The notes beneath the pieces were generated by a model. It had not been told where the DNA came from. It made no database searches and saw only the letters and a program-made list of their open reading frames with translations. A DNA stretch of 447 bases from Escherichia coli (GTDB lineage: Bacteria > Pseudomonadota > Gammaproteobacteria > Enterobacterales > Enterobacteriaceae), in NCBI RefSeq assembly GCF_003334335.1, contig NZ_QOWQ01000189.1. One strand, given 5' to 3'. Both the position numbers and the translations under genes were made by a program. Each line of letters starts with the position of its first letter. The first letter of the stretch is position 1. Below are positions 1-447 of the stretch, piece after piece.

Positions 1-152
1 ACCCACTGTGGAATGAGGCCAAAGTGCTGCGGCCAGAAGCTGATGCGCTGTTCATCAGGGACTATGGTGGCAACCAGCTGAGGCTGGTCATTCCCTGATG
101 CAGCGGTTACGGAAACAGAAGGAGTGGTGGAATTATGCAAGACGGTTGTCAT
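1..152 (-). CDS. Antirestriction protein, ArdB/KlcA/YfjX family; N-terminal 50 codons, 5'-partial in window (continues past position 1)
   Basis: ATG is the complement of 150-152, with an in-frame stop upstream (complement of 216-218) and no alternative ATG/GTG/TTG between them. An AAGGA Shine-Dalgarno (complement of 161-165) sits 8 nt upstream. The frame is open to the window edge. Translation: MTTVLHNSTTPSVSVTAASGNDQPQLVATIVPDEQRISFWPQHFGLIPQW. The VPDEQ-I-FWPQHFG-IPQW block matches my recollection of E. coli YfjX and the corresponding region of plasmid KlcA; this is recalled similarity, not a search result. Confidence 0.75.
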   Translation of the reverse strand, partial: MTTVLHNSTTPSVSVTAASGNDQPQLVATIVPDEQRISFWPQHFGLIPQW

Positions 153-160
153 GAGATTAT

Positions 161-165
161 TCCTT
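161..165 (-). promoter_or_regulatory. Shine-Dalgarno sequence (AAGGA) for the antirestriction CDS
   Basis: Minus-strand AAGGA followed by an 8-nt spacer (AUAAUCUC) and then the ATG at 152-150. Confidence 0.6.
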
Positions 166-243
166 ATAAAAAGTAAATGAATGGAAGAAATCCCGGGGGA
201 AGGGACAGACGTGAGTCAGAACTGCGCTTTCAGGGAAACGGCA

Positions 244-447
244 TCAGCGCATACTCTCCAGCAGCGTTTCAGCCATCACCCACAATGCGCGGTTGAGCTT
301 AATGTCGGTGTCGATGCTGTGAATGGCACGGGTATGGATACGTTTTCCTCTGGCACTGCGACCGGAAATCCCGCCTTTCAGCATATTCTCCTGAATGGTC
401 TGATAAGCACTCCACAGGTCCTTACCGTAATCCTCCCGGCGTCGTGG
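244..447 (-). CDS. Hypothetical protein, C-terminal 67 codons plus stop; 3'-partial in window (N-terminus lies beyond position 447); family not recognised
   Basis: Minus-strand frame is open from the window edge to TGA (complement of 244-246). Translation: PRRREDYGKDLWSAYQTIQENMLKGGISGRSARGKRIHTRAIHSIDTDIKLNRALWVMAETLLESMR*. The sequence is protein-like with mixed composition and a basic tract (GRSARGKRIHTR). It is in the same orientation as the downstream antirestriction gene, 91 bp upstream of it. The other two minus frames are interrupted by stops. Confidence 0.65.
   Translation of the reverse strand, partial: PRRREDYGKDLWSAYQTIQENMLKGGISGRSARGKRIHTRAIHSIDTDIKLNRALWVMAETLLESMR

Follow-up and report, generated by a model that had tools for sequence, protein, structure and literature searches.

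The window analysed here, i.e. the whole 447-nt stretch of Escherichia coli DNA, carries parts of two genes on its minus strand. The 3′ part of a gene for a DUF932-domain protein occupies positions 244–447 (minus strand) and ends with a TGA stop codon at 246–244, according to the RefSeq annotation and a script check. It is followed, after a 91-nt spacer (153–243, minus strand), by the 5′ part (codons 1–50; positions 1–152, minus strand) of a gene of the ArdB/KlcA antirestriction family, as assigned by RefSeq, Pfam and PDB matches. The start codon of this gene, ATG 152–150, agrees with the RefSeq annotation of the identical sequence in E. coli SMS-3-5, and the minus-strand frame opening at 152 begins MTTVLHNSTTPSVSVTAASGNDQPQLVATIVPDEQRISFWPQHFGLIPQW. 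A Shine-Dalgarno (SD) sequence, AAGGAA, is present at 160–165 (minus strand), with AAGGA (165–161) lying 7 nt before the ATG. The encoded protein carries the Pfam domain PF03230 (Antirestrict; E value of 3.2e-37, residues 66–161, model positions 1–92 of 92). In the PDB it matches 2WJ9, the ArdB protein of CFT073 (E value of 2.5e-98), and 2KMG, KlcA (E value of 7.8e-21). NCBIfam gave no model for either the ArdB or the DUF932 protein. The PF03230 and 2WJ9 matches bear out the assignment of the minus-strand gene to antirestriction in an earlier note on this DNA, and to judge from its sequence the gene is an ordinary ArdB antirestriction gene. Serfiotis-Mitsa et al. (2010, PMC2836571) describe yafX and yfjX from K-12, together with ORF14 from CFT073, as homologues of ardB and cloned them for study; the title of the paper credits KlcA and ArdB proteins with an in vivo antirestriction activity that acts on type I systems. 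The K-12 paralogue yfjX has been renamed lfgA in the literature, where it heads the lfgABCDE operon.

No promoter-like or terminator-like site is found in the 91-nt spacer on either strand. Because the two genes are on the same strand and their spacer contains no promoter-like site, ardB is presumably co-transcribed with the upstream DUF932 gene. The length of the spacer is polymorphic in E. coli, with 91 nt in the window, ~54 nt in locus L035 and ~340 nt in locus L036; the corresponding region of locus L037 holds an additional 81-aa hypothetical gene beside a truncated DUF932 pseudogene. The window has matches of 100% identity in many complete E. coli chromosomes, and its homologues occupy 12,465 places in 4,464 of the 5,426 complete E. 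coli genomes. The exact sequence lies at 2265900–2266346 of NC_010498.1 in SMS-3-5, where the RefSeq annotation places it in an island adjoining a tRNA-Ser gene; NCTC86 is another strain with this allele. There the order of the genes, all of which are on a single strand, is GTPase, Ag43 autotransporter, DUF932, antirestriction, RadC-like JAB, DUF987, a hypothetical gene, YeeU-family antitoxin, CbtA-family toxin, DUF5983, DUF957 and DUF4942. The cryptic prophages CP4-44, CP4-57 and CP4-6 of K-12 have this gene set, and the locus is an E. coli island of the CP4-44/CP4-57-like kind, linked to tRNA-Ser. At its far end (L001 13743–16005; NC_010498.1, 2271642–2273904), the SMS-3-5 island abuts the gene of a type I restriction-modification M subunit, directly followed by an IS1B copy, and this restriction-modification locus is possibly disrupted. 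A repeat search of the window returned nothing beyond short chance matches.

The part of ardB that concerns us here is its 5′ end. The first ~25 residues of ArdB (window 77–152, minus strand) are hypervariable in sequence and length among the homologous loci L002–L037, and residues 26–161 are near-invariant. Residues 26–161 of the window protein are nearly the same as those of CFT073 ArdB; its N-terminal ~25 residues differ from those of CFT073 ArdB, YafX and YfjX/LfgA, and KlcA has nothing that corresponds to them (residues 1–21). The loci compared comprise 13 further E. coli copies taken across the identity range, the two K-12 paralogues and 21 loci of other species or genera. The N-terminal type of the window, MTT..HNSTTPS, is kept by close Escherichia relatives only. 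Ten copies of this type, including the window and 91–100% identical to it, make up the set of close homologues used below, in which constraint was measured as mean pairwise diversity per codon position. At codon positions 1 and 2, diversity amounts to 0.07–0.13 in codons 1–25, compared to 0.014–0.021 in codons 26–50. This higher diversity suggests that the N-terminal tail may be evolving freely; alternatively, it may be a disordered linker or be under diversifying selection. No statement about a disordered N-terminus was found in the ArdB paper (PMC2836571). In a freely evolving tail, motifs on the opposite strand that mirror its codons would come and go.

The plus strand of this region contains an SD-like hexamer, AAGGAG, at 119–124, followed by an ATG at 135–137 and a 13-codon open reading frame, MQDGCHEIIPYKK, closed by TAA at 174–176 (mini-ORF, 135–176, plus strand). 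A script check gave TGGTGGAATT, of 10 nt, as the spacer between AAGGAG and ATG. The coordinates of the hexamer, gap, start, 13 codons and stop put forward previously are exact to the base, and the mini-ORF does run antisense over the ardB start codon (152–150) and SD (165–161), as had been described. Its codons align with those of ardB read as their reverse complement. On the opposite strand, the hexamer corresponds to CTCCTT within the codons for Thr10 (ACT), Pro11 (CCT) and Ser12 (TCT) of ArdB. It is completed by the A at position 123, which is the site of the third, synonymous base of the Thr10 codon, and the ATG lies opposite CAT, the codon for His6. Codons 2 to 6 of the mini-ORF mirror ArdB Leu5, Val4, Thr3, Thr2 and Met1, and codons 7 to 13 together with the TAA mirror the AT-rich ardB leader, CTTTTTATAAGGAATAATCTC, which contains the ardB SD. 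A 39-codon ATG ORF, MNGRNPGGRDRRESELRFQGNGISAYSPAAFQPSPTMRG, lies directly after the mini-ORF stop and in frame with it (177–296, plus strand), antisense to the spacer and the C-terminus of the DUF932 protein. This second ORF has no SD and is probably due to chance.

Conservation of the mini-ORF was examined in the set of close homologues. AAGGAG is present in only two of the ten (the window and L025, at 97.5% identity); six carry AAGGTG and two AAGGCG, these variants corresponding to synonymous changes of Thr10 from ACT to ACA or ACG. Thr10-Pro11 is kept in nine of the ten, the exception being L029 with Ala10, and no site between 115 and 179 varies more than position 123 (A, T or C; pi of 0.62). 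Thus eight of the ten copies retain the N-terminus of ArdB without the hexamer, and neither the SD nor the mini-ORF passes the conservation check that had been proposed for them. The peptide varies at four of its 13 positions (2, 3, 7 and 8). The stop is lost in three of the ten copies (L029, L032 and L004), where TAA is replaced by CAA and the mini-ORF joins the 39-codon ORF to give 48–53 codons. The ATG is kept in all ten, a point that counts against a chance origin. This invariance is unremarkable, since 36 of the 50 third positions of ardB are invariant in the same ten copies and since variants with a CAC codon (GTG on the plus strand) exist in five genomes. In loci with other N-terminal types the pattern is lost. 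L035 and L005 have an ATG immediately followed by TGA, and CTG replaces ATG in L033, L034, L036 and L037 because residue 6 is there a Gln encoded by CAG. L037 is of the N-terminal type of the CFT073 ArdB protein that was crystallised and is active in vivo. No equivalent mini-ORF was found in the distant homologues, namely yafX and lfgA of K-12 and 19 loci of other genera. A start, frame, stop and ribosome-binding site (RBS) conserved together, as would be expected of a small-protein gene, are not found at the mini-ORF.

The invariant stretches within the mini-ORF give further information. Among the ten close homologues there are two such blocks only, 144–154 and 159–173. They correspond to the ardB start codon and to its SD and leader, i.e. 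the conserved parts of the mini-ORF appear to be those needed by ardB itself. Synonymous-site constraint in the overlapped ardB codons had been suggested as a check. In ardB codons 1–12, which lie under the SD-like hexamer and the mini-ORF, diversity is 0.080, 0.098 and 0.111 at codon positions 1, 2 and 3, respectively. The values are 0.126, 0.067 and 0.104 in codons 13–25, 0.014, 0.021 and 0.095 in codons 26–50, and 0.018, 0.019 and 0.117 in the last 66 codons of the DUF932 gene. Third positions under the mini-ORF (0.111) therefore show no excess constraint compared to those elsewhere (0.095–0.117), in a test whose power is low with only six overlapping codons. As third-position diversity is equal under the mini-ORF and elsewhere, nothing points to a second reading frame.

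Exact-sequence searches in the 5,426 complete E. coli genomes were used to count the alleles. The 58-mer covering the whole pattern (119–176) is found in 402 records. The 31-mer from upstream of the SD through the ATG (108–138) occurs at 530 places in 511 genomes, and the same 31-mer with A123T, which reads AAGGTG, occurs at 2,218 places in 1,854 genomes. The A123T form with a CAC codon for His6 accounts for five places in five genomes. The complete SD-start-stop pattern appears confined to one young allele lineage of one ardB N-terminal type.

How often such a pattern is expected by chance was estimated by shuffling the 447-nt window 2,000 times with its dinucleotides preserved. A 6-mer SD (AAGGAG or AGGAGG) located 4–12 nt before an ATG appeared at least once in 7.45% of the shuffles, and the 5-mer version in 37%. 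The 6-mer motif is moderately rare, yet many occurrences are expected per genome. Real E. coli DNA (36.4 kb, L001–L003) contains nine such 6-mer sites, seven of them annotated starts and two not, the mini-ORF being one of the latter. Since seven of the nine sites are real starts, the motif alone has some predictive value, and this counts against the chance reading. AAGGAG is moreover a strong SD that could still allow initiation at a 10-nt spacing, which counts in the same direction. The seven annotated genes with a 6-mer SD in these loci have gaps of 6–8 nt, compared to 10 nt at the mini-ORF.

Evidence for transcription of the plus strand was sought in the sequence, the annotation and the literature. 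A consensus scan, which is an insensitive method, found neither a sigma-70-like promoter nor an intrinsic terminator on the plus strand of the window, nor any upstream of the site in the 2.3 kb around it in L001 (7100–9400). Rfam, searched at a permissive E-value, gave only a eukaryotic snoRNA noise match on the other strand (15.4 bits compared to a gathering score of 90). The hypothetical plus-strand RNA 90–200 is predicted to fold no better than its shuffles (z of -0.63), and in the predicted minimum-energy fold AAGGAG is paired with 156–165. No plus-strand PGAP annotation was found among the 90 matches listed, i.e. the 30 best-ranked ones and 60 spread down the ranking. The literature searched reports no antisense RNA, antisense control or small protein at the ardB starts of such islands, and that on the K-12 paralogues gives context only (the lfgABCDE operon and ArdB activity). 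The K-12 paralogues have another N-terminus and leader than the ardB gene of the window, so that K-12 transcriptome data are not applicable to the mini-ORF.

Taken together, hexamer and mini-ORF are very probably an accidental, non-functional mirror of the translation-initiation region of ardB. AAGGAG would arise as the reverse complement of ACT-CCT-TCT in ArdB, the ATG from the CAT codon of His6, the five codons that follow from ArdB codons 5 to 1, and the final seven, with the TAA, from the AT-rich leader and RBS of ardB. On this account 119–176 would really be the translation-initiation region of an ordinary ardB gene, and we infer that the mini-ORF is not expressed. The earlier note had itself called the arrangement most likely coincidental. 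The lack of conservation of SD, peptide and stop, the absence of plus-strand signals in the regions scanned and the chance frequency of 7.45% agree with that opinion. Its other proposal, an antisense transcript or micro-peptide positioned to control antirestriction, finds no such backing. It fails the check that the note had set for it, because most homologues with the same ArdB N-terminus lack the SD.

Three functional readings were weighed against this one. In the first, a non-coding cis-antisense RNA over the ardB start would block translation or trigger RNase III cleavage, the SD and ORF being mere passengers. Any plus-strand transcript crossing 135–176 would indeed complement the RBS and start codon of ardB without a mismatch, and antisense transcription is pervasive in E. 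coli. Against such an RNA stand the plus strand itself, devoid of promoter or terminator consensus and of an Rfam family, and its predicted fold, which the shuffles equal. The conservation observed nowhere exceeds what the ardB RBS explains, and the literature on antisense RNA and ArdB, KlcA or antirestriction offers nothing relevant to these islands. The features by which a cis-antisense RNA is recognised, a promoter and terminator of its own and a stable or conserved fold or known family, are not found at the mini-ORF, and we consider this reading very unlikely.

A young, allele-specific micro-protein gene would have a different history, in which A123 created an RBS and the antisense 13-aa peptide, or the ribosome traffic that makes it, dampens the translation of ardB. 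The strong 6-mer SD, the ATG at 10 nt and the 13 intact codons speak for it, as do the mostly real starts found at 6-mer SD and ATG sites in the sampled loci. The AAGGAG allele, found in ~511 of the 5,426 genomes, is moreover no singleton. The sister allele without the SD is four times more common, however, and conservation of the peptide is lacking among the close relatives, three out of ten of which have also lost the stop. Synonymous sites show no excess constraint, the upstream plus strand has no promoter-like site, AAGGAG is paired in the predicted plus-strand fold and its gap to the ATG is wider than in the real genes of the sampled loci. A micro-protein gene therefore seems extremely improbable to us. 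The same holds for its population-level version, in which a recent synonymous change in ArdB codon 10 would have given ~10% of E. coli genomes an RBS on a weakly transcribed antisense strand, and with it a de novo micro-ORF that hampers ArdB synthesis; we give this version hardly any credence.

Finally, a control acting in the sense mRNA, in which CUCCUU of codons 10–12 would occlude the ardB SD AAGGA as an anti-SD, was rejected as scarcely credible: UCCUU (123–119, minus strand) is complementary to AAGGA (165–161), but the sense strand allows no more than five contiguous pairs, the minimum-energy fold predicted for the sense leader does not use them (z of -1.39, not significant, 20 of 200 shuffles being equal), and the completing base, 123, is the most variable site, with CACCUU in most copies.

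The accidental mirror favoured here can be set beside several known classes of antisense elements. It shares its frame with the spurious codon-aligned antisense ORFs of bacterial genes, its start and SD mirroring a His CAT codon and a Thr-Pro-Ser run. Unlike most of these, it has a 6-mer SD, a feature seen at two of the sampled loci only, and this makes it look more gene-like. The validated small proteins and antisense overlapping genes of E. coli that came to light through ribosome profiling, e.g. in K-12 and EHEC, have measured ribosome occupancy, often with tagging and conservation. Compared to the validated small proteins, the mini-ORF is equally short, SD-bearing and antisense, but its SD, peptide and stop are not conserved. 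Some cis-encoded antisense RNAs occlude the RBS of mobile-element genes, as in the type I toxin-antitoxin system Sok/hok. The hypothetical plus-strand RNA would resemble these in being complementary to a mobile-element gene at its RBS and start codon; unlike RNAs of that type, the plus strand of the window lacks a promoter, a terminator, a conserved structure and an Rfam match.

Were the mini-ORF expressed, it would show on a small scale how an antisense micro-ORF is born on a mobile island, and it might put a brake on an antirestriction gene. The negative outcome is useful as well: ordinary Thr-Pro-Ser and His codons can yield a strong antisense SD and ATG at a start region, and a comparison of alleles differing at one synonymous site (530 and 2,218 copies) suffices to dismiss the mini-ORF.

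Antisense ORFs as such are common at this position. Some unrelated antisense ATG-ORF runs across the ardB start codon in 34 of the 38 homologous loci. In the window the ardB start lies in the palindrome CATG (150–153), so that the plus strand carries an ATG at 151–153 opening a nine-codon ORF, MRLFLIKSK; this antisense ATG is a trivial product of the palindrome and is seen again in most homologues. Furthermore, in L031 and L037 the antisense frame aligned with the ardB codons stays open for 147–157 codons, and in the window it is closed by TGA at 96–98. This long antisense ORF is polymorphic and of the kind expected from codon bias.
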